Below are positions 3,384 to 35,929 of a stretch of DNA of 64,000 nucleotides, one piece after another. The position numbers and the translations under genes were made by a program. The notes under the pieces were generated by a model. It saw only the letters and a list, made by a program, of their open reading frames with translations, did not search any database and had not been told where the DNA came from. The number at the start of each line of letters is the position of its first letter. Within the stretch, counting starts at the first letter, position 1. Source of the DNA: Escherichia coli (GTDB lineage Bacteria > Pseudomonadota > Gammaproteobacteria > Enterobacterales > Enterobacteriaceae); the NCBI RefSeq assembly GCF_048403405.1, contig NZ_CP183129.1, one strand, 5' to 3'.

Positions 3384-3401
3384 AAAAAAGAGTTTGAGAG
3401 A

Positions 3402-5549
3402 ATGAGTGATCGTTATGTGATAGAGGCCTGGCTGCGACCGGCGGTGGAATTGAACAGTGCTCTGGTGTCCGGCGGGGCGGCGTTTGTGTGTGCGGTAGCG
3501 CCCTGGGCAGTGGCATTGTCTCCGTCCGTGAGTTATGTCACCGCCGGTGCGTTTGCCGGTTTTTCCGCATTGCGGGCACATCAGGGATTCCGGGTATTAC
3601 GTTACCGCCGGAATCTCCGGCGTCTGCCCCGCTATCAGGTGACGTCGGCACAGGTGCCGGTCAGCCGGCAGCGTCTGTTTCTGGGAAAAGGGTTTCAGTG
3701 GCAGCAAAAACACACGCAACGCCTGCTGGAAACCCAGCGTCCGGAAGTGGAGCGGTATGTTCAGCCGCCGGCACATTACCGGCTGGCCCGGCAGTTTGAA
3801 CTCCGTTTTGAATCCCGTTTTCCGGCGGTTTGCCGGCTTTTGCAAAAAGACAGTTGGCTGAATCCGGTCCGCCCGCTGACGCCGGTGGGGGGGAATCCGG
3901 TGTTACACGGTGTGGAGCCGGATGAGGTGAATGTGACCATGGATTTGCGTGAACGGGTTGGTCATATGCTGGTACTGGGGACCACCCGTGTCGGCAAAAC
4001 CCGTCTGGCGGAAGTGCTGATCACTCAGGATATCCGCCGGGGGAATATCACGATTGTTTTTGATCCGAAAGGGGATGCGGATTTATTGCGCCGGATGTGG
4101 GCGGAAGCGCATCGTGCGGGGCGCAGTGAGGAGTTTTATGTTTTTCACTTGGGCTGGCCTGATATCAGTGCCCGTTATAACGCCATCGGGCGTTTTGGCC
4201 GAGTATCGGAAGTCGCGGGGCGGGTTGCCGGCCAGTTATCCGGGGAAGGGAACAGCGCGGCGTTCCGGGAGTTTGCCTGGCGGTTTGTTAATATCATTGC
4301 CCGGGCACTGGTTGCTCTGGGGGAGCGTCCGGATTATGCCAAAATTTTACGTTATGTCACCAATATCGGGGAACTCTATCAGACATATTCGATGCAGGTG
4401 ATTAAAGCACAACTACCTGATTTGTTTGCCCAAATCGAGAATGCGCAGAACGCGCTGACGGTCGAGGATGTGCCCCGTCATCTGCAAAGTGATCCGAAAG
4501 CTGTGGCTATCTGGGCAACGGAGCTGGCGTTAAGTAGTGAGAAAGGGAAAAAAATCTATGATCCGATTTTGGACGGGCTGCGCAGTGCGATCCGTTATGA
4601 CCGGACCTATTTTGATAAAATAGTGGCTTCTCTGCTGCCGTTACTGGAAAAACTGACTACCGGAAAAACTGCCGCCCTGTTGTCGCCGGATTACACCAAT
4701 ATGCAGGATCCCCGTCCGATTTTTGACTGGCAGCAGGTGATTCGGAAAAAAGGGATTGTATATGTCGGGCTGGATGCGTTATCGGATGCGGAAGTGGCGG
4801 CAGCGGTGGGGAATTCCATGTTTGCGGATTTGGTCTCGGTAGCCGGGCATATTTATAAATTCGGGACTCAGGATGGACTGCCGGAGGATGAGCACGCCGG
4901 AAAATTACCGATCAGCCTGCATTGCGATGAATTTAATGAACTGATGGGGGATGAATTTATTCCGTTACTGAACAAGAGCGGCGGCGCGGGGATTGAAGTG
5001 ACGGCCTACACACAGACCTGGTCTGATATTGAAGCCCGGCTGGGGAATGCGGCGAAATCGGCGCAGGTCACCGGTAACTTTAATACGCTGGTGATGTTGC
5101 GTGTCCGTGAACTGATGACCGCGAAATTACTGACGGAACAGTTACCGGAAGTGGATATTTACACCAAAACCCTGGTATCCGGGATCACCGATATTTCCAA
5201 TCCGAGGCAGGGGAGTGATTTTACCTCCAATACCCAGGACAGGGTCAGTATGGTGGCTAAACCGCTGCTGTTACCGGCAGATATTATTCAGTTACCGAAA
5301 GGACAGGCGTTTGCGCTGCTGGAAGGCGGGAAGTTATGGAAAATCAGGATGCCCCTGCCGGCGGCAGAGGCTGATGCCCTGATGCCACCGGATTTACAAA
5401 AAATCGCACAGTATATGGAGAAAAATTACCGTACCGGCGAAACTTGGTGGACTGCGTCATCATTTTCGGATGCGCGGTATGACAGCGGCGGTATGAATGT
5501 GGCTGAGATGGCACCGGATACCGAAGGGGGCAACGATGGCAACTGCTGA
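3402..5549 (+). CDS. traD: conjugative coupling protein TraD-like (VirD4 family ATPase)
   Basis: Walker A GTTRVGKT, N-terminal TM segments, about 715 aa; start placed at MSDRYV after the repeat array with a gagag RBS. Confidence 0.85.
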   Translation: MSDRYVIEAWLRPAVELNSALVSGGAAFVCAVAPWAVALSPSVSYVTAGAFAGFSALRAHQGFRVLRYRRNLRRLPRYQVTSAQVPVSRQRLFLGKGFQWQQKHTQRLLETQRPEVERYVQPPAHYRLARQFELRFESRFPAVCRLLQKDSWLNPVRPLTPVGGNPVLHGVEPDEVNVTMDLRERVGHMLVLGTTRVGKTRLAEVLITQDIRRGNITIVFDPKGDADLLRRMWAEAHRAGRSEEFYVFHLGWPDISARYNAIGRFGRVSEVAGRVAGQLSGEGNSAAFREFAWRFVNIIARALVALGERPDYAKILRYVTNIGELYQTYSMQVIKAQLPDLFAQIENAQNALTVEDVPRHLQSDPKAVAIWATELALSSEKGKKIYDPILDGLRSAIRYDRTYFDKIVASLLPLLEKLTTGKTAALLSPDYTNMQDPRPIFDWQQVIRKKGIVYVGLDALSDAEVAAAVGNSMFADLVSVAGHIYKFGTQDGLPEDEHAGKLPISLHCDEFNELMGDEFIPLLNKSGGAGIEVTAYTQTWSDIEARLGNAAKSAQVTGNFNTLVMLRVRELMTAKLLTEQLPEVDIYTKTLVSGITDISNPRQGSDFTSNTQDRVSMVAKPLLLPADIIQLPKGQAFALLEGGKLWKIRMPLPAAEADALMPPDLQKIAQYMEKNYRTGETWWTASSFSDARYDSGGMNVAEMAPDTEGGNDGNC

Positions 5550-6285
5550 GGTACGTCAGGAAACCCCGCGTCACCCGGCAAAAGACCCCGGTTTGCCGGC
5601 TAAATTGTTGTGGCACTGGCCGTGGGCCATCATCGGGGTATTACTGGCCTCCTGGGTATGCAGTCTGTTGATTGAGTGGGTCGGGATTGCGTTTTTCTGG
5701 GCGGACGAAGGGGCGGAGCACAGCCGGCAGGTGATGTTAACCGAGAGCGGGTATCTGTCAGAAGGGTTTACCCGTAGTCTGCTGATGTCCAGTCCGGCGC
5801 AGTGGCTGGCTCATACCGTTGAACAGGCATACCGGTGGCTGTTTGTGGAGTCCGGGCTGATGGAGAGCTGGCAGAACGTGTATCCTGTCAGCGGGAATGC
5901 AGTTGCCCGTGAACTGGATGACTGGCGGATTTGGTTTGTGTCCGAGCTGAGAGACTATCTGCTGGCGACGGTTTATGTGACGCTGACCTTTTTTATCCGG
6001 GTGACTATTCTGGTGCTGTCGATGCCCCTGTTTGTTATGGTGCTGTTGGTGGGCATGGTGGAAGGCTTTAACCGGCGTGATTTGCGGCGTTATGGTGCCG
6101 GGTATGAATCCAGTTTTGTGTATCACCACGCCAAGCGTTTTGTTAAGCCGGCCTTTTTTGTTCCGTGCATGATTTATCTGTCCTGGCCGTCTGCCATTTA
6201 CCCTAATCTGGTGTTGTTACCGGCGGCTCTGTTGTTCGGGCTTGCGGTGGCAGTGGCTACCGCGTCATTTAAAAAATATTTATAG
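5536..6285 (+). CDS. ICE integral membrane protein (PFL_4697-like)
   Basis: Multi-TM 250-aa ORF overlapping traD stop; start at MATAEV. Confidence 0.55.
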   Translation: MATAEVRQETPRHPAKDPGLPAKLLWHWPWAIIGVLLASWVCSLLIEWVGIAFFWADEGAEHSRQVMLTESGYLSEGFTRSLLMSSPAQWLAHTVEQAYRWLFVESGLMESWQNVYPVSGNAVARELDDWRIWFVSELRDYLLATVYVTLTFFIRVTILVLSMPLFVMVLLVGMVEGFNRRDLRRYGAGYESSFVYHHAKRFVKPAFFVPCMIYLSWPSAIYPNLVLLPAALLFGLAVAVATASFKKYL

Positions 6286-22901: not shown

Positions 22902-23243
22902 TTCCCCCTCCGGTAATCAGTGAGTCTGATTTATCTCATGCTTGTCGTCTATCGTTAATACAATTTTAGGTCGATTTTTAATCATTGTCTACATCTTGTG
23001 AGTTATGCACATATCCACGGTCACCAAGCCAGTGCAACCCGATGCCAACAAGCAATCGGGTAAACGGGAGCGTACAGGGCATCGGCCCTGATGGTGGCGG
23101 TGGGTATGTGTATAACTTTTTTGTTGCCTTCATATAAAAATCTTATTCTTTCATCTGGATGGATTTATTGAATTTGATTTTTTATGTCAGTTTAAGTAAG
23201 TTTTTAATATGTATCCGAGTCCTTGTATATAGGAGATGATAAT

Positions 23244-23543
23244 ATGAATTTTATTTTTTGGTTTGTGGTCTTAATAGGGGCGGGATATTTGTGGAGGAGG
23301 AGGGGTTGGTTCAGTAAAATAAGGAAGCAATACTCAAGGAGAAAAACAACATTAAATGGTAACAAAGGATGTTTATATAATAAAAAAAATGACAATGATG
23401 CTTTGGAAGGTAATGGGGATTGTAATAATTTTTATTCTGAGAATAAAGAAAGTTTCTTTTGGTTAATGATTGAGAGAGGTATTAAATTTTACAGAAAAGA
23501 ATATTTGACTACGATTACTGAAAAAAATATCATGATAAGTTAG
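23244..23543 (+). CDS. hypothetical small membrane protein (AT-rich cargo)
   Basis: N-terminal TM followed by basic stretch; RBS aggag 8 nt upstream of ATG 23244. Confidence 0.4.
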   Translation: MNFIFWFVVLIGAGYLWRRRGWFSKIRKQYSRRKTTLNGNKGCLYNKKNDNDALEGNGDCNNFYSENKESFFWLMIERGIKFYRKEYLTTITEKNIMIS

Positions 23544-23782
23544 TGAGCTGGTTTGGTGAGAAATGTTATATACATTGTCAGGTTAGTTTAGGGAGTTTAT
23601 TTATATTCCCAAAACAAAAAAATTTTACTGATGAAGAACAAAAACGTTTTTTTTCTGTTTGTAATAGAATGTCCTTGGATTTTATTTTAACATTTAAAAC
23701 TAATATGCCCTTCTTACGTGTTTCTGTTGACTCTATGAAAAATAAACCGCCTGTTTGGGATGTTTATGATAAATCCAAATAA
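23543..23782 (+). CDS. hypothetical small protein, overlapping previous stop
   Basis: 79-aa ORF, ATGA overlap with upstream gene suggests coupling. Confidence 0.3.
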   Translation: MSWFGEKCYIHCQVSLGSLFIFPKQKNFTDEEQKRFFSVCNRMSLDFILTFKTNMPFLRVSVDSMKNKPPVWDVYDKSK

Positions 23783-23957
23783 AAACATATCTGATTGTTG
23801 AGTTTTCGTGATTAAAGATGGCATTGATTATTAATACGATGAAGAACCAACAAGGGGATATTTAATAAAGAGAAAAAGGAGGATGTAAAATATTCTCCTT
23901 TTTCTTTATCGGGTATTGACGAAAAAAGAAAGTTTGATTAAATTTACCACGTTACAC

Positions 23958-24176
23958 CGTTGCTTAATGCAACATTGCCAATGCTTCGGTTGTCTGAGAG
24001 AAGCGCCTACGGGTGACAACAATGCCAATCCGGCAATCTGAGAGGAACGCCTACGGGTGATTGCCACTGCCAATCCTCGGGTCATCTGAGACGAGGGCCT
24101 ACGGGCGATGACAGAACTCCGTTCGTCCTTGAAATCGACGGAGGGTGATAACAGAATAGCGTTATCATCAGGATTA
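23958..24176 (+). repeat. Structured direct repeat copy 1 (three tandem hairpin units plus two further hairpins)
   Basis: Near-identical to 26392-26612; three about 45-nt units with stems gttgtc/gacaac, ggcaatc/gattgcc, gtcatc/gatgac around a conserved loop tgaga..gcctacggg. Confidence 0.8.
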
Positions 24177-24389
24177 ACTGCACTTCAGTGACCATGTCAC
24201 AGCTATCCGGTCACTCGGATATCCACAAAAAAGCAGAGTATGCGATAACGTGTATCTGCCTCTTCTGATGTGTTCTGACGAATACGTCCTGCTTTCTGCA
24301 ACCTTTGTATGCCCGGTATGACGCGTTTCCATTGCGCAGCTTTGGAAAGCGGCATCTTCGGAGCAATACATTGAGCAGCAGAATGATGG

Positions 24390-24436
24390 GCGTGCGTCAC
24401 TTTCGTCAAGTGAAACGAAGACAAAGTGACGCACGC
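24390..24436. promoter_or_regulatory. Long imperfect palindrome upstream of the recombinase-like gene
   Basis: gcgtgcgtcactttcgtc ... gacaaagtgacgcacgc, about 17-bp arms, no flanking T-run. Confidence 0.4.
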
Positions 24437-24824
24437 AAGTGCATACGCTCAGAACGCTTCAATACTGGTCTTACAGCAAAACTGACAATCTGACAGACAT
24501 GTAATGCATTGCTCAGAACGGCTGAAAGTCTTTCAACGCTCAACGTTTATATGATGATAAAAACGTATAACATTATGAAAAAAGGAGAAAAAACGACACG
24601 ATACCAAGGCGACGTCAGGAAACTGACGGACGGAGGTGCCCTGATAACGGGGGCCGGTCTGATGACCGCAAACAGTTCAGAGAACTGATTTGATACCTCT
24701 CAACAACTCAACCTTTTATCGCCCCGGTGCTCAGGTATCTGTCAGGTCGCAGGATGCGCAATATAAAACCGTCGCGCCGGGAAAAGGTAACCAGTTGAGA
24801 GCGAAAGAGGCGGAGAATCAGAGA

Positions 24825-25733
24825 ATGTCCAGAAGAGCAAAAGCCCTGTCCCGTGAAATGCATATCCTTGCACGTCAGGCCGGAGGGAGCTTTAAAACCA
24901 TTGCAGACCGGGTCAAAATTGCAGAACGGGTTGCGGCAGAGCTGGCCGGGTTGAATATTCAGATACGATCTGTTGAGCAACTGAAATCCCGCCATATTGA
25001 AATGTATATCCATGCCCGCAGAGAACAGAATATCAGTTTACGCAGCTGTCAAAACGAAATGTCGGCTATCCGGGCGATATTTCGTGTTGCCGGACGTCAT
25101 AAACTGGCTGACCCTAAACATGAGCGCCTCAGTAATGAGGCGCTGGGGCTTTCAGGTGCCAGCAGGGCTGGCACCCGTACCGCGATATCGGACGAGCGCT
25201 TTCACGAAGCGCTCGCTCGGATTGAGCCTTATGATCAGGGGGTGGCATTAACTATGCAGTTATCCCGTAGTCTGGGATTGAGAAATGAAGAAGCCGTGCA
25301 GTCAGTAAAATCATTACGGACCTGGCAACAGGCGCTTAAAAACGGTAAAGATCGCGTTCATGTGGTTTTTGGGACAAAAGGAGGCAGACCCCGTGAAGCA
25401 TTAGTGCCGGATAAAGCCCGTGTATTAACATTAATTAATAAAGCCATTGAATATGCGGATAAACATAACGGTTATTTAATTAATCGTCCGTCATTACATT
25501 CTGCCAAAGATCGTTATATTAATGTGATGCGACGGATAGGCGGATTTATTCACGAAGAATCAAATCATGGTTTACGGTATGCCTATGCTCAGGATGTTGA
25601 AAAATATTATCTCAGTCAGGGATTCAGTCAAAAGGAAGCCTATGCATTAACCTCCATGGATTTAGGGCATGGTGACGGTCGTGGCGATTATATTAAACGG
25701 GTTTATAGTCAGAAAGGAGATATTGAGGAATAA
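24825..25733 (+). CDS. tyrosine recombinase-like protein (integrase-fold)
   Basis: Motifs in canonical order: LGLRNEE (Arg), HGLRYAYA (HxxR), LGHGDGRGDYIKRVY (candidate Tyr nucleophile); start taken at ATG 24825 after aagaggcggaga, though the ORF could extend to 24690. Confidence 0.5.
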   Translation: MSRRAKALSREMHILARQAGGSFKTIADRVKIAERVAAELAGLNIQIRSVEQLKSRHIEMYIHARREQNISLRSCQNEMSAIRAIFRVAGRHKLADPKHERLSNEALGLSGASRAGTRTAISDERFHEALARIEPYDQGVALTMQLSRSLGLRNEEAVQSVKSLRTWQQALKNGKDRVHVVFGTKGGRPREALVPDKARVLTLINKAIEYADKHNGYLINRPSLHSAKDRYINVMRRIGGFIHEESNHGLRYAYAQDVEKYYLSQGFSQKEAYALTSMDLGHGDGRGDYIKRVYSQKGDIEE

Positions 25734-25740
25734 GATAAAA

Positions 25741-26352
25741 ATGAAAGTCTGTTTAATTATTTTGTTTATTAATTTTGCTTTTTGTTTTCCGTTAATGGCG
25801 AAGACGTTATTTTTAGGTGATTCATTAACGGCTGTTTATGAAATGTCAGCAAAATATGTTTTGGATGAAAAAATAAAAACAGAATATGTTTCCGGTTCGG
25901 GGTTAATAAATAAAAGTAAAAAAGATTGGATCGCTTTCGTGAATAATTTCGATTTGCGGGAGTTTGATAATGTGATTATTAGTCTCGGAACAAATGATTT
26001 TGTTCAATATGGTTCGGATGAATGGCTGAAATATTACAGTCTGGTATTTCAATTCATTGCTGAAATTCAAAGTGAAAATCCGTTAGCGACAATTGTCTGG
26101 ATATCTCCACCACATTTAAAAAATCCGGAACATGAACGTTATTTAATACATACCCGGCATATAATTAAACACAGTGCGATGTTATTAAATATTCATTATC
26201 TGGATATTAATCAGCCTCATATATTAGGAACGCAATGGCAATCTGTTATTCATAATGAAACTGTACGAACTGATGATGGAATACATATTACCCGTAAAGG
26301 GGGAGTACGGGTGATCAGAGAAGTGGTAAAAATCCTGAATGGGCAGGATTGA
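25741..26352 (+). CDS. secreted SGNH/GDSL-family hydrolase (esterase/acylhydrolase)
   Basis: Signal peptide then GDSL block (LFLGDSLTA), GTND block, C-terminal DDGIH; very low GC; RBS gagga. Confidence 0.6.
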   Translation: MKVCLIILFINFAFCFPLMAKTLFLGDSLTAVYEMSAKYVLDEKIKTEYVSGSGLINKSKKDWIAFVNNFDLREFDNVIISLGTNDFVQYGSDEWLKYYSLVFQFIAEIQSENPLATIVWISPPHLKNPEHERYLIHTRHIIKHSAMLLNIHYLDINQPHILGTQWQSVIHNETVRTDDGIHITRKGGVRVIREVVKILNGQD

Positions 26353-26391
26353 CAAAGATAAAAAAACGGCTAAAAATGAATCTGCTTATCT

Positions 26392-26612
26392 CGTTGCGTA
26401 ATGCAACTTGCCAATGCTTCGGTTGTCTGAGAGAAGCGCCTACGGGTGACAACAATGCCAATGTTCCGGCAATCTGAGAGGAACGCCTACGGGTGATTGC
26501 CACTGCCAATCCTCGGGTCATCTGAGACGGGAGCCTACGGGCGATGACAGAACTCCGTTCGTCCTTGAAATCGACGGAGGGTGATAACAGAATAGCGTTA
26601 TCATCAGGATTA
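26392..26612 (+). repeat. Structured direct repeat copy 2
   Basis: Same orientation as 23958-24176; differs by 3 substitutions and two small indels. Confidence 0.8.
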
Positions 26613-26640
26613 TTTTTACGCAACGCTTCATATAACCTGC

Positions 26641-26700
26641 CCGCTGACGGGGAAATCACCCGTCATCAGGGAATTTCTCCGTTTTTTCAGGAGAAATTCA
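26641..26700 (+). promoter_or_regulatory. Two-hairpin leader sequestering the RBS of the downstream gene
   Basis: gacggg-loop-cccgtc followed by tttctcc-TTTTTT-ggagaaa ending 4 nt before ATG 26701; same architecture at 28081-28147. Confidence 0.5.
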
Positions 26701-27063
26701 ATGAAGGTATCTACATTTCCGGAATCGTCTTTTTTTGACGATCTGCACTCTCTCACGCAACTGCATCACCTCTCAGGTGAGCTCGACATGGTTCTTGCTT
26801 TTGTCCGTCTGGATATTGGCGAGCACCCGGACGAAGATAATTTTCCGCCAAACTTCTGGATAATCAGTGCCGTTGCAGAGCAACTGGGCGCGTTATCTGT
26901 GGAGGCTGATTTTACCCGTCCACATCTTGAGAAAATGGTCCGCGCTGTCTGGAAAGCGGCTGAGCAAACGCCTTATGCGTCTGACTTTCGCCGTATCTAC
27001 AACGATGCGATCAAAAATGCACAGTTTGAAGATCCGGTTGAAGCGCTGATGTTTGGTGCTTAA
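26701..27063 (+). CDS. hypothetical acidic protein (ICE cargo)
   Basis: 120-aa ORF directly after the structured leader. Confidence 0.45.
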   Translation: MKVSTFPESSFFDDLHSLTQLHHLSGELDMVLAFVRLDIGEHPDEDNFPPNFWIISAVAEQLGALSVEADFTRPHLEKMVRAVWKAAEQTPYASDFRRIYNDAIKNAQFEDPVEALMFGA

Positions 27064-27144
27064 CGGCGGACATTCACTGATTTTATGACCCATACGGGAA
27101 AACATCCCGTGAGGGCTGTATTCCCTTATCTGAGGATAGCCCTT

Positions 27145-27462
27145 ATGACTCTTTTTACATTGAATTATGGTGTTGCCCACGTAATGTCTGGTATTGCCAG
27201 TTATTTATTTCCGCATTCCCGTGTTTCTCAGCAACTGAAGGCCGTTGCTAATGATGCCCGGATGCTGAAAATCACCGCAGAAGAACTGGAGGTGATACGT
27301 TTGGACGAAAAACGGATGTATCAGAGCGGAGATTACAGAGAACTGCCGTTTATTGAGCTTGATTTGTATACAACGGCATTTCGTTTTGGCGCCCTGATTT
27401 ACTATGGACTCGCAAACCGGTGCCCCCGCATTTTTGCTTCACCGGCTGACAGTCATCGCTGA
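27145..27462 (+). CDS. hypothetical protein (ICE cargo)
   Basis: ORF with gagga RBS; preceded by an acggga-loop-tcccgt hairpin. Confidence 0.35.
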   Translation: MTLFTLNYGVAHVMSGIASYLFPHSRVSQQLKAVANDARMLKITAEELEVIRLDEKRMYQSGDYRELPFIELDLYTTAFRFGALIYYGLANRCPRIFASPADSHR

Positions 27463-27628
27463 GCGGCTCGATCCGGAAATCTGGAATGAAGCCTGGCGCT
27501 GGGGTTACCGCTGCTGCCTGCAACACGAAAATGAAAAGCATGTAACCGACTGATTTAACGGACTCACAGGTGTCAGTCAGCTACCCTGAAATGGGGCTGC
27601 TTCCATTTACTGATCAGGTTTGATAACC

Positions 27629-32766: not shown

Positions 32767-32941
32767 TAAAACATTATTCATGTAATCTTCTGTTTTGTTG
32801 CCGGAATTATTTTTGTGGATGAGTTAACGTAATGAAAATAAGGTGCATTTATTATTTATTCTTATCCTGATATTAAAATAATTTATGTTTTATTTAATGT
32901 TGCGTTGTTGTTTTTACCGAATTAAAGAGGCAGTAACACCG

Positions 32942-34534
32942 ATGTTACCGTGGTTTCGTAAATCGCTTTCCCGGAAAGCGGAAGAGAAAACATTGCGTGT
33001 TTCCCCGGGAAACACGCAGGAAAGGCCATTATTTATCCGTGACAGTGACGGCTTTTATTTACCGCAGGCAGCTGACGTATTGCTGACCACACCGCAGCGG
33101 CAAAACTGGTTACAGCAAATCAGCCGGGTGGTAGCGTTACCGGATAACCAGTACCGGGCACTTTGCCTGTCTCCTTTGCAGACGCTGGCAGAACGACTTC
33201 AGTGTGTGCCGGCATCAAAAACCGGGAAATATGCCGGCGAAGGGGGATTGCTGGATTTAACGCTGAATACGACAGCCTGGTGTATGCGGATGTCCCAGAA
33301 AGAGATGCTGCCCCGCGGGCTTCCGTCGGAAGAGCAGAGCCGTCAGTTCAGCGCCTGGAATGTGTGTGTTTTTTATACCGGACTGTTTTACTGGTTACCG
33401 TTAACGGCACAGTTTGAGGGACAACTGAACAGCCTGTCGGCGTGGCAGCCGGGGATGAGTGCGCCCACCGTACCGTATCGTTTTCGCTTTCATGAGCCGG
33501 TGCCGGATATGACGCATTTTCGCCGGACGACGGGGGCCATGATGGCTTTCCGGCTATTACCGGAGAAGGTAATCCACTGGTTGTCGGGTACACCAAAGGC
33601 GCTTCAGGCGTTGTCTGACGTGGTGACCGAGCCGGTAAACGGTGATAATGATTTACAGCGTGTGCTGAATGAGGCTCTGGCTGCGTTCCCCGCCGGTGCA
33701 TTGCCGGCATTTTCTTCCGTTGTTTCTATGTCAGCGCCTGATGCTTCGTCTTCAGTGCTATCAGGGCAGCCGGAGAATGATATCGCGTCATTGGCGCCTG
33801 CTGAATTGGCGCAAAAGCCACAACCTGAAACTCCGTCTGTAACATCTGTATTGCCTCCGGAGTCTGTTACTTCAGAAAAAACAGAGAACGGAATTCACTG
33901 CGATATACCGCTAATGGTAGTTGCAGAAGCAGAAGGTGCGGTTGTCCATGGGGCACTTGATTCTGCTGATGAAAAAACTGTCTCAGATATGTCTCCTCCG
34001 TTATCTGAGGATATGAAATATGCACTTGAATTATCAGGTTTAATGCCGGAAATCTTATCTGATACTCAGACGGGCAATCGTGATGAGAAGGATGAACAGC
34101 GCGAAAACTGTCTGAGTATAAAAAATGAAGGAGAGGCTTTCTGGGCGTGGTTTAAGTCCGGATTATTGGGCGGAAAACTGGCAATAAATACGCCGGATGC
34201 GAAGGTTCACTGTGTCATGGAGTATTTGTTTTGCCAGAGTCCGGCTGTTTTTTATCAGTACATACAGGAGGCGGGTAAAAATCCGGATGATATCGGCCAT
34301 ATTATTTCTTCTTTTGAATCCCTTAAATTGCACCGGATTATTCGTCATGATACCCGACAAACAGGGCATTTCAGGGCTCGAATTTATGGTGAAAAACTGA
34401 ATCCGCTGAGTGATAACAAAACATTAATTACGTTATCCCATAAAAAAATCAATGGTTACATGATTAAAGGACGTCAGATTTTTGGCATGAATATGCCGGA
34501 GGAATCATTGTTTATTCGTATTGTCGGAAGTTAA
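32942..34534 (+). CDS. large ICE protein next to the integrase; putative relaxase-like (positional inference only)
   Basis: 530-aa ORF with aagagg RBS and AT-rich promoter region; no recognisable relaxase motif found by eye. Confidence 0.3.
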   Translation: MLPWFRKSLSRKAEEKTLRVSPGNTQERPLFIRDSDGFYLPQAADVLLTTPQRQNWLQQISRVVALPDNQYRALCLSPLQTLAERLQCVPASKTGKYAGEGGLLDLTLNTTAWCMRMSQKEMLPRGLPSEEQSRQFSAWNVCVFYTGLFYWLPLTAQFEGQLNSLSAWQPGMSAPTVPYRFRFHEPVPDMTHFRRTTGAMMAFRLLPEKVIHWLSGTPKALQALSDVVTEPVNGDNDLQRVLNEALAAFPAGALPAFSSVVSMSAPDASSSVLSGQPENDIASLAPAELAQKPQPETPSVTSVLPPESVTSEKTENGIHCDIPLMVVAEAEGAVVHGALDSADEKTVSDMSPPLSEDMKYALELSGLMPEILSDTQTGNRDEKDEQRENCLSIKNEGEAFWAWFKSGLLGGKLAINTPDAKVHCVMEYLFCQSPAVFYQYIQEAGKNPDDIGHIISSFESLKLHRIIRHDTRQTGHFRARIYGEKLNPLSDNKTLITLSHKKINGYMIKGRQIFGMNMPEESLFIRIVGS

Positions 34535-34549
34535 AAGCAGGAGGTGTTT

Positions 34550-35620
34550 ATGAAAGATAATCACAGTTCTGATGAACATCAGCAGAAAGTGGATGTATGG
34601 GAGCAAATGCTGAGTAATTACTTTTACAATAAAGTATTACGGCCGGATACGGAGAAAACATACCGTAAGATGGTACGTCTTTTTCTGCGTTATTGCGGAG
34701 TTTGTGAAAATGCGTTACCGCTACCGGATGAAGTGACACATGAGCATGTGCTGAGATGGCGAAGAAATGAGCTGAATATTCAGAAAGTCCGGGAACGGAC
34801 ATGGAACACAAAAACCAGGCATATGCAGTCTCTGTATAATTATTGGATCAAAAAAGGGATTGTTTCACTTAAAGAAAACCCGTTCTCAGAAACACAAATT
34901 GAACCGGGTGAAAAACAGAAAAAAGTCTATACACAATCACAACTGAGAACGATTTATCGTATTCTGGAACAATTTCAGCAACAGGAAAATATGCTGCCAC
35001 CTGATCAGGCTCACTTTCAGGCATGTGCGGTTTATCCCACTCGATTCTGGTTTGCTGTGCTGGAAACGCTGAGGCTGACGGCTATTCGTTTTAACCAGCT
35101 GATTAACCTGCATATTGGCGATCTGGATTTTGAGGAGTGTACGATCACATTGCGCAGTGAAAGCAGTAAAAATCACCGGGAATATCAGATTGCTTTTGTT
35201 CAGCCACTACGTTGTTTACTGGCGCCCTTGGTTGAGGAAATGCGTTGTCACGGGGCGGATAAAAACGATATTTTGTTTGATGTTCATCGTCTTTATCATA
35301 AACGACTATCCCGCTCTGAAACTCCACTCAGTCAGACGATACGTTCTTTTTTCCGTCGTTTATCAAAGGAATGTGGATTTCATGTCAGTCCCCATCGTTT
35401 CAGACATACACTGGCGACGACATTAATGAAACATCCTGAACGTAATATGCAATTGACGAAACAGATGTTAGGACACCGTAGTCTCTCTTCAACTATGGAA
35501 TATATTGCTCTGGATGCATACAGTACAGTCAGGATCTTGGAGAATGAGTTAGGTGAGTTTTTAACAATGGGATTAGGTGGTGAACTTACAAGGCTAGCAT
35601 CAAAAAGACAGAGGATGTGA
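34550..35620 (+). CDS. int: tyrosine site-specific integrase (ICE integrase)
   Basis: C-terminal catalytic region HRFRHTLAT ... LGHRSLSSTMEYI; RBS gcaggagg; adjacent to tRNA-Phe. Confidence 0.85.
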   Translation: MKDNHSSDEHQQKVDVWEQMLSNYFYNKVLRPDTEKTYRKMVRLFLRYCGVCENALPLPDEVTHEHVLRWRRNELNIQKVRERTWNTKTRHMQSLYNYWIKKGIVSLKENPFSETQIEPGEKQKKVYTQSQLRTIYRILEQFQQQENMLPPDQAHFQACAVYPTRFWFAVLETLRLTAIRFNQLINLHIGDLDFEECTITLRSESSKNHREYQIAFVQPLRCLLAPLVEEMRCHGADKNDILFDVHRLYHKRLSRSETPLSQTIRSFFRRLSKECGFHVSPHRFRHTLATTLMKHPERNMQLTKQMLGHRSLSSTMEYIALDAYSTVRILENELGEFLTMGLGGELTRLASKRQRM

Positions 35621-35853: not shown

Positions 35854-35929
35854 TGGTGCCCGGACTCGGAATCGAACCAAGGACACGGGGATTTTCAATC
35901 CCCTGCTCTACCGACTGAGCTATCCGGGC
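35854..35929 (-). tRNA. pheV: tRNA-Phe (GAA anticodon)
   Basis: Reverse complement reads GCCCGGATAGCTCAGTCGGTAGAGCAGGGGATTGAAAATCCCCGTGTCCTTGGTTCGATTCCGAGTCCGGGCACCA, the canonical E. coli tRNA-Phe, 76 nt with CCA. Confidence 0.95.

Follow-up and report, generated by a model that had tools for sequence, protein, structure and literature searches.

The recombinase gene WP_004252296.1 carries a sharp internal step in GC content that is at most an old scar of DNA exchange between related elements. We rank exchange as the most likely source of the step, giving a probability of roughly 55% to an old homologous exchange between related elements whose trace would lie over a weak intrinsic composition profile; the main rival is drift without recombination. 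The gene itself is, judged by its sequence and modeled structure, an intact and ordinary member of its tyrosine-recombinase family, and the gene, the element that holds it, and the flanking RNA motifs are all already cataloged. Coordinates of the features (table below) refer to the window, that is, the whole 64,000-nt stretch of Escherichia coli DNA that was analyzed.

Table. Positions of the recombinase gene parts and surrounding features in the 64-kb window.
Feature	Positions	Strand	Support or composition
Sigma-70-like promoter match before STAXI-1	23,916-23,944	+	TTGACG-17-TAAATT, 9/12; consensus match only
STAXI copy 1 (RF01728), left end of module	23,958-24,115	+	cmscan 112.1 bits, gathering 40.5
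Direct repeat of ~200 nt, left copy (STAXI + 3' flank)	23,975-24,176	+	99-100% identical to right copy
Invariant inverted repeat GCGTCACTT-N21-AAGTGACGC, between STAXI-1 and EFASI	24,394-24,432	n/a	
EFASI (RF02957), 80 nt upstream of start codon	24,593-24,744	+	cmscan 78.1 bits, gathering 51.2
GC-richer 5' two-thirds of integrase gene, aa 1-199 (core-binding domain, linker, first half of catalytic domain)	24,825-25,422	+	GC 0.513, GC3 0.46; PF12834 + first part of PF12835
AT-richer 3' third of integrase gene, aa 200-302 + stop	25,423-25,733	+	GC 0.363, GC3 0.26
Last 112 nt of integrase gene, putative end of recent exchange tract	25,622-25,733	+	MaxChi permutation p = 0.003
SGNH/GDSL (DUF459) hydrolase gene, signal-peptide-like N-terminus	25,741-26,352	+	Pfam DUF459 2.6e-17
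Sigma-70-like promoter match before STAXI-2, right slot edge	26,349-26,377	+	TTGACA-17-AAAAAT, 10/12
STAXI copy 2, right end of module	26,392-26,551	+	cmscan 123.3 bits
Direct repeat of ~200 nt, right copy	26,408-26,612	+	
tRNA-Phe	35,857-35,929		

By its gene content, the window carries an ICEPm1-type integrative conjugative element (ICE) at tRNA-Phe in the E. coli chromosome. A 4.5-kb query (window 23,000-27,500) had 100% identity to several complete genomes of E. coli, in every case on the chromosome, and found a match in 27 of 5,426 complete genomes, 13 of which cover at least 80% of it. Since a megablast search of plasmids returned no match, the element is taken to be chromosomal. As annotated in RefSeq, the identical E. 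coli locus holds the TIGR037xx ICE genes, taaP, a TraG_N protein, DUF3742, ArdC, CbtA, a TraI-domain protein, and a site-specific integrase adjoining tRNA-Phe. Insertion at this tRNA has been described as a hallmark of ICEPm1 (PMC11278526). The ICEPm1 elements of Proteus mirabilis, Providencia, and Morganella, which are PAPI-1/ICEclc-like ICEs at tRNA-Phe, share the gene set and a near-identical integrase with the present locus but differ from it in host, which here is E. coli; the recombinase protein is 100% identical to that of Providencia stuartii (NCTC11800) and 99% identical to that of P. mirabilis (ATCC 29906). The integrase for self-transfer of this element is the one at the tRNA end; the element thus has two recombinases, and the present gene encodes the internal one.

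This gene (24,825-25,733, plus strand; 302 aa; RefSeq label "integrase domain-containing protein") matches the Pfam families PF12834 (Phage_int_SAM_2; 1.6e-35, 121.9 bits, cut-off 22) and PF12835 (Integrase_1; 5.6e-51, 172.8 bits, cut-off 23) over approximately the full length of each profile and in that N-to-C order, the standard two-domain architecture of the family. Among the best 120 of 1,637 database homologues (E <= 1e-10), all 120 have both domains, lengths range from 265 to 343 aa, and query coverage is 94-100% in nearly all; the usual homologue length is 295-305 aa. Across 35 diverse homologues, residues R153 (in GLRNEE), K185, H248, R251, and H282 never vary, and Y289 and Y294 are near-invariant (at least 90% conserved); we take these to be the R-K-H-x-x-R-H/W-Y positions by motif resemblance to XerD. 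A PDB sequence search with the family profile gave matches at chance level alone, with no solved structure matched by sequence, and the fold was therefore checked by structure prediction. The AlphaFold2 model (pLDDT 88.5) has one contiguous two-domain tyrosine-recombinase fold, and Foldseek aligned it over approximately 300-330 columns to Tn1549 Int, lambda Int, Cre/Tre, and XerH in the PDB (TM 0.54-0.61, probability 1.00). Neither a frameshift, a shortened family alignment, nor a loss of recombinase-fold residues was seen in the gene. An upstream extension of the ORF that begins with TTG (24,690-24,824) is unlikely to be coding, as EFASI overlaps it; given this overlap and the usual length of the homologues, the ATG at 24,825 is the likely start. 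The literature searched reported no experimental function for the PF12834 + PF12835 integrase family.

Base composition changes abruptly within the gene. A maximum-likelihood change point falls at 25,423 (support interval 25,247-25,433), where GC content drops from 0.513 to 0.363 and GC1/2/3 from 0.61/0.46/0.46 to 0.51/0.33/0.26, and the share of Phe, Tyr, Met, Ile, Asn, and Lys rises from 0.20 to 0.33. The GC-richer 5' part and AT-rich 3' part described in the original prediction are therefore real, and the proposed switch at 25,350-25,400 was right within ~50 nt, as GC3 begins to fall there. The seam, at approximately aa 194-199, falls midway through the catalytic domain, after the K185 beta-hairpin and before the helix that follows; the domain border is at approximately aa 95-108. 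It splits the active site, with R153 and K185 encoded upstream and H248, R251, H282, and Y289/Y294 downstream, so that the HxxR and Tyr motifs do sit in the AT-rich part as had been claimed.

Of the 30 window ORFs that reach 250 aa or more, the recombinase gene ranks first in within-gene GC difference (0.144) and second in likelihood ratio. That base composition merely fluctuated by chance within the 909 nt of the gene could be argued from the unspectacular within-gene permutation p values of 0.007-0.02 (14 of 2,000 codon permutations reached the likelihood ratio of the step) with 30 window genes examined, and from the TraI-domain gene at 32,885-34,531, whose GC step is comparable. We nevertheless consider chance highly unlikely, since the same trough recurs in relatives at 75-77% nucleotide identity and the gene lies 4 sd away from the 66-80 homologues with which it was compared.

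The AT-rich 3' part and the adjacent hydrolase gene are compositionally alike (GC 0.363 versus 0.330, GC3 0.26 versus 0.265; chi-square p = 0.35), as had been noticed from the letters, and joint segmentation of integrase and hydrolase places the single best break again at 25,423. On composition alone, this likeness would favor a chimera of unrelated pieces, in which a foreign, AT-rich catalytic domain that came in with the hydrolase was joined to either a GC-rich gene fragment or a pseudo-N-terminal extension. A great many full-length homologues have both domains, though, the predicted structure is a single contiguous fold, and active-site residues lie on both sides of a seam that is inside the catalytic domain, so this part of the original prediction fails. 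Hydrolase-less relatives and distant hydrolase homologues, described below, argue against it as well, and we judge such a chimera extremely unlikely. As the seam splits the catalytic domain, only an exchange between homologous genes could yield a working protein. Of the broader suggestion that the gene became chimeric by recombination, fusion of unrelated parts can be discarded, and homologous exchange retains weak support from tests with p of approximately 0.03 and a change of sister group.

The nearest outside comparison is a sister clade from Dickeya, Salmonella, and Citrobacter (64-69% amino acid identity), which occupies the same position in the ICE without the hydrolase. The 3' third of these sister genes is AT-rich too (GC 0.37-0.43) and orthologous to that of the query, and in the gene-end alignment integrase homology reaches the last codons and ends at the stop codon. 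The true cargo junction is therefore the integrase stop codon, 310 nt beyond the GC step, and we rejected arrival of the 3' third together with the hydrolase because hydrolase-less sisters share the AT-rich third and homology ends at the stop. This is a caution for similar cases, as a sharp GC step that continues into an AT-rich neighbor mimics a co-acquired block, and it was the relatives that placed the junction at the stop.

The hydrolase gene (GC 0.33) starts 7 nt after the integrase stop and is confined to the ICEPm1-type clade among the loci compared. Its family is narrow, with 35 database matches, mostly from Proteus, Providencia, Morganella, and E. coli. We rejected the possibility that the hydrolase was ancestral and then lost in the sisters, because tblastn finds no remnant in the other loci, and likewise a donor integrase beside distant hydrolase homologues, because these are found on conjugative plasmids (Trb/Tra) of Proteus and Providencia, away from any integrase. 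A consensus scan for an internal hydrolase promoter, which might have accounted for the AT-rich 3' end, found 8 sites versus 6.5 expected from shuffled sequence, and thus no excess. The hydrolase is lineage-specific AT-rich cargo inserted exactly after the integrase stop.

Family loci differ in what follows this stop codon. Upstream of the gene, STAXI keeps a conserved distance of approximately 650-830 nt from the start codon; on the other side, the interval between the stop codon and the downstream STAXI, which we call the cargo slot, varies from 34 to 1,625 nt. Short slots of 51-61 nt are hardly more than the promoter-like sequence before STAXI. Long slots contain unrelated, mostly AT-rich genes on either strand (SnoaL-like, ParE toxin, PIN, resolvase, arginase-family, and Abi_2), and a slot typically holds one gene or none. 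The internal GC difference of the recombinase gene is 0.036 in loci with cargo and 0.012 in those without (p = 0.0035), a statistic that ignores phylogeny. The position just after the recombinase gene is a hot spot for unrelated cargo and may be of specialist interest.

The step was also compared with the wider protein family, in 80 homologous loci from species-representative genomes, each gene being split at the aligned seam position. In these loci, the GC content of the 5' part minus that of the 3' part is +0.015 on average (sd 0.033), versus 0.144 in the query, and the largest value outside ICEPm1 is 0.072. In 66 distant homologues the GC contents of the two parts are correlated (r = 0.88), and the regression of 3' on 5' GC leaves residuals of z = -4.6 for the query and -3.5 for L086, one of the two most distant ICEPm1-type relatives (the other being L084). 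The family has a GC profile of its own, with a peak of +0.04 at aa 91-135 and a trough of -0.058 at aa 196-225, both of which the query exaggerates (z of approximately +/-2.8 each). The original prediction had named full-length homologues with the same compositional profile as the finding that would speak for a domain-intrinsic bias; such homologues are abundant, but the profile in them is merely faint. The large step is thus lineage-specific in size, and the family shares its shape only faintly, at low amplitude.

The step is old. The same GC trough and the same integrase-hydrolase pair occur in ICEPm1-type relatives at 97% (E. coli M19), 89% (E. coli AHB10), 77% (Morganella morganii), and 75% (a metagenome contig) nucleotide identity. 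No jump in identity occurs at the seam against these relatives, and MaxChi along the gene gives p = 0.45 against L084 and 0.37 against L086. Because relatives from 97 down to 75% identity have the step in common without a break at the seam, it cannot be recent, and any exchange that made the seam must be older than the ICEPm1-type clade as a whole. Outside this clade, synonymous sites are saturated (identity 0.45-0.58) and so cannot serve to date the two parts of the gene separately.

The main rival, to which we give a lower but still serious probability, is that no recombination took place and that an intrinsic amino acid and codon profile was amplified by lineage-specific substitution bias. 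Possible forms of such drift are AT-biased change of the 3' third in AT-rich Proteus and Providencia hosts, or a gain of GC in the 5' part. The low-amplitude family profile of the same shape fits this reading, as does the somewhat lower conservation of the 3' third across the family (amino acid identity 0.69 versus 0.74). Fixed differences between ICEPm1 proper and Morganella-type sisters point the same way, with ICEPm1 carrying A/T versus G/C at a ratio of 12:2 in the 3' part and of 23:22 in the 5' part (p = 0.03 for the contrast); these counts are unpolarized, as polarizing with an outgroup gave too few informative sites and is biased where outgroups are AT-rich. In GC3, the two parts likewise differ by 0.20 in ICEPm1 proper but by only approximately 0.08 in L084 and L086. 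Part of the sharpness of the step is accordingly lineage drift. Against drift as the whole explanation, third positions, which are mostly free of constraint, differ by the full 0.20, and change driven by the host should strike both parts alike. The regression residuals for the window and for L086 also speak against it, and phylogenetic signal and composition change at the same place.

That last coincidence speaks for exchange. In the 5' part, the query clade has an amino acid identity of 0.61 to the sister clade and 0.60 to the rest of the family, and in the 3' part these values are 0.72 and 0.52. A MaxChi scan of informative amino acid sites finds a break at aa 194 (p = 0.03). In a three-taxon test for which the compositional change point was chosen as the break in advance, site patterns upstream of the seam unite the query clade with L087 in 25 cases and with the sister clade (clade A) in 15, versus 7 and 15 downstream (Fisher p = 0.033). 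Neighbor-joining trees agree, the sister group of the query being L087 upstream (94% bootstrap) and the sister clade downstream (76%); the sample comprised five ICEPm1-type loci, four sister-clade loci, and a single L087-like locus, which carries the whole incongruence. We infer weak support for homologous recombination between related genes at the seam.

Two further observations count against exchange. In the trees of both parts, the query, L087, and the sister clade stay together as one clade (support 86% and 97%), so that neither part leaves its major clade. Moreover, no donor lineage is known among database proteins, and none of the full-length matches is close to the query in one part and distant in the other. 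The separate searches with each half that had been recommended were judged unnecessary, since a protein of this kind would rank among the top full-length matches.

Exchange within the recombinase gene does happen, to judge from a comparison with E. coli AHB10. Divergence from this variant is 2.6% upstream of 25,622 and 10.7% in the last 112 nt of the gene, and amounts to 11.3% across the hydrolase and 31% around STAXI-2. The jump probably marks where a recent exchange tract that runs through hydrolase and STAXI-2 stops, and its break lies ~200 nt downstream of the seam, not at the seam.

We therefore favor exchange over drift as the source of the excess, and see three layers in the composition of the gene. 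The first is the weak family profile, with GC raised in the linker, which is rich in Gly, Ala, and Arg, and lowered in a helix rich in Lys, Asn, and Ile (aa 196-225). The second is the AT-rich 3' third common to the wider clade, hydrolase-less sisters included, and the third the GC-richer 5' two-thirds peculiar to the ICEPm1-type lineage, where the 5' part has a GC content of 0.49-0.52 versus 0.42-0.47 in sister lineages. The excess over the family profile would then be the trace of an exchange between related elements of unlike base composition. With a crossover inside the conserved 3' part of the gene, the 3' third would come to have a common past with the AT-rich cargo slot that follows the gene. 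Insertion of the hydrolase came later, right after the stop, in a slot that other elements fill with unrelated genes.

Integrative conjugative elements are expected to be mosaic in composition. The present gene resembles mosaic genes formed by homologous recombination between related mobile elements in that its phylogenetic signal shifts where its composition steps, and in that a recent tract boundary is found in the same gene of a close variant. It differs from them in that no parental sequences were found and the statistics are modest; the event, if real, is ancient.

The gene belongs to a known kind of module. The STAXI/EFASI-associated "XerDC-type" integrases (PF12834 + PF12835) have the same architecture and gene order, with STAXI also after the gene, and we see no difference in kind between them and the present gene; peculiar to this locus are the hydrolase before STAXI-2 and the unusually large GC step. 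Both motifs take their names from this association with integrases, and the order described for Rfam is STAXI, EFASI a few hundred nucleotides downstream, and last the gene for the integrase (PMC2864571; Rfam text quoted in PMC12370729). The order here is the same (STAXI at 23,958, EFASI at 24,593, gene start at 24,825). All three RNA-motif elements (two STAXI and one EFASI) score above the curated thresholds. The order of STAXI, EFASI, and integrase is identical in 12 relatives, as is the position of EFASI. The promoter-like sequence before STAXI-2 occurs at the same offset in nearly all family loci.

A tyrosine recombinase beside a slot for unrelated single genes, with structured repeats as bounds, resembles an integron integrase with its cassette array, but the likeness ends there: the cargo lies in either orientation, the slot holds mostly zero or one gene, and the recombinase is of a different family. 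Comparison of slot boundaries revealed no repeated attC-like element at the cargo boundaries beside the STAXI promoter. We rejected an integron-like cassette platform because of the cargo on either strand and the lack of a repeated boundary element. A more daring view, which we hold to be improbable, is that the STAXI, inverted repeat, EFASI, recombinase, slot, and STAXI together form a cargo-exchange platform of the ICE. The recombinase would act on GCGTCACTT...AAGTGACGC or on STAXI, possibly in the form of folded single strands while the element is being transferred by conjugation, and the slot after the stop would capture or swap unrelated AT-rich genes, including the defense-type Abi, PIN, and ParE. 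If this were true, the GC step in the recombinase gene would be a recurrent footprint of cargo exchanges.

The inverted repeat upstream of the gene, GCGTCACTT-N(10-23)-AAGTGACGC, is strictly invariant and present in 84 of 89 family loci; it may be of specialist interest, and it occurs once in the 64-kb window. No Rfam model covers it, a permissive Rfam scan of 24,120-24,620 having returned no match. As the stem never varies, it has no covariation, which bears neither for nor against an RNA structure. The repeat is a candidate protein-binding site or hairpin, and a candidate for the target site of the recombinase. The ~200-nt direct repeats on either side of the integrase-hydrolase pair are 99-100% identical here, but similarity between the two copies is only ~94% in E. 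coli M19 and ~72-75% in E. coli AHB10 (L082) and in L084.

The integrase gene is preceded by an inverted repeat of the form GCGTCACTT-N(10-23)-AAGTGACGC, which occurs only once within the 64-kb window. It was found in 84 of the 89 family loci (those carrying integrase homologues; range L002-L090 of the fetched comparison loci), 277-524 nt 5' of the integrase start, and is kept although the integrase proteins of those loci share only 51-60% identity. The 9-bp stem showed zero variation across the family loci. No Rfam family covers the window position of this repeat, which we consider a candidate recombinase binding site or hairpin. Coordinates of this and the other features are compiled in the table.

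Features of the element and of comparison loci (window coordinates unless a locus is named)
Feature	Position	Description
Very AT-rich islet	23100-23900	GC 0.26-0.32; between DUF3742 gene and STAXI-1
Small ORFs in islet	23,223-23,543; 23,543-23,782	
Weaker promoter-like match	23916-23944	similar offset, 5' of STAXI-1
Direct repeats	23975-24176; 26408-26612	~200 nt each; STAXI plus flank; bracket integrase-hydrolase pair
Inverted repeat	24394-24432	9-bp arms; between STAXI-1 and EFASI
Variable slot	25734-26391; equivalent interval in L004-L090	integrase stop codon to downstream STAXI
Sigma-70-like promoter sequence	26349-26377	TTGACA-17-AAAAAT; ~10-15 nt 5' of STAXI-2
TraI-domain gene	32885-34531	GC falls from 0.532 to 0.411 within the gene near 33,860
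Terminal site-specific integrase gene	34,544-35,617	GC 0.417
traD, window	3,402-5,546	open 715-aa ORF
traD, E. coli CRE287	L001 404-2550 (~window 3400-5550)	annotated frameshifted
Distant hydrolase homologues	L091 4001-4585; L092 4001-4582	

The variable slot that follows the integrase stop codon ranges from 34 to 1,625 nt across elements and is occupied, depending on the element, by unrelated AT-rich genes on either strand, for example those encoding an SGNH hydrolase, a SnoaL-like protein, a ParE toxin, PIN_12, a resolvase, an arginase-family protein, or Abi_2. In cargo-free loci, the gap of 51-61 nt after the integrase gene is essentially the promoter-like sequence alone, and an equivalent of this sequence lies ahead of STAXI-2 at the same offset in nearly all family loci. 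The promoter-like elements before STAXI are consistent with its transcription as an RNA of its own. At the position of the AT-rich islet, which holds two small ORFs, relatives carry other genes (DUF2726, DUF2913, MazE/PIN), and the islet therefore represents a second variable slot.

The two STAXI-containing direct repeats share 99-100% identity with each other in the window element; in E. coli M19 the value is ~94%, and in E. coli AHB10 (L082) and a further comparison locus (L084) it is ~72-75%. The near-identity of the copies here suggests recent homogenization, and makes RecA-mediated loss of the 2.4-kb segment they bracket possible.

Distant homologues of the DUF459 SGNH hydrolase, with 38-40% identity, were identified on Proteus and Providencia conjugative plasmids, where TrbM adjoins one of the hydrolase genes and IncFII repA and TraX are found near the other. 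This hints at a link between the small hydrolase family and Morganellaceae conjugative elements.

Elsewhere in the element, the TraI-domain gene has a GC step comparable to that of the integrase gene, its likelihood ratio being reached by none of 300 codon shuffles, and the AT-rich terminal integrase gene lies directly downstream. The coupling-protein gene traD is an open reading frame in the window and annotated as frameshifted in the RefSeq record of the CRE287 element, which is otherwise identical to that of the window.
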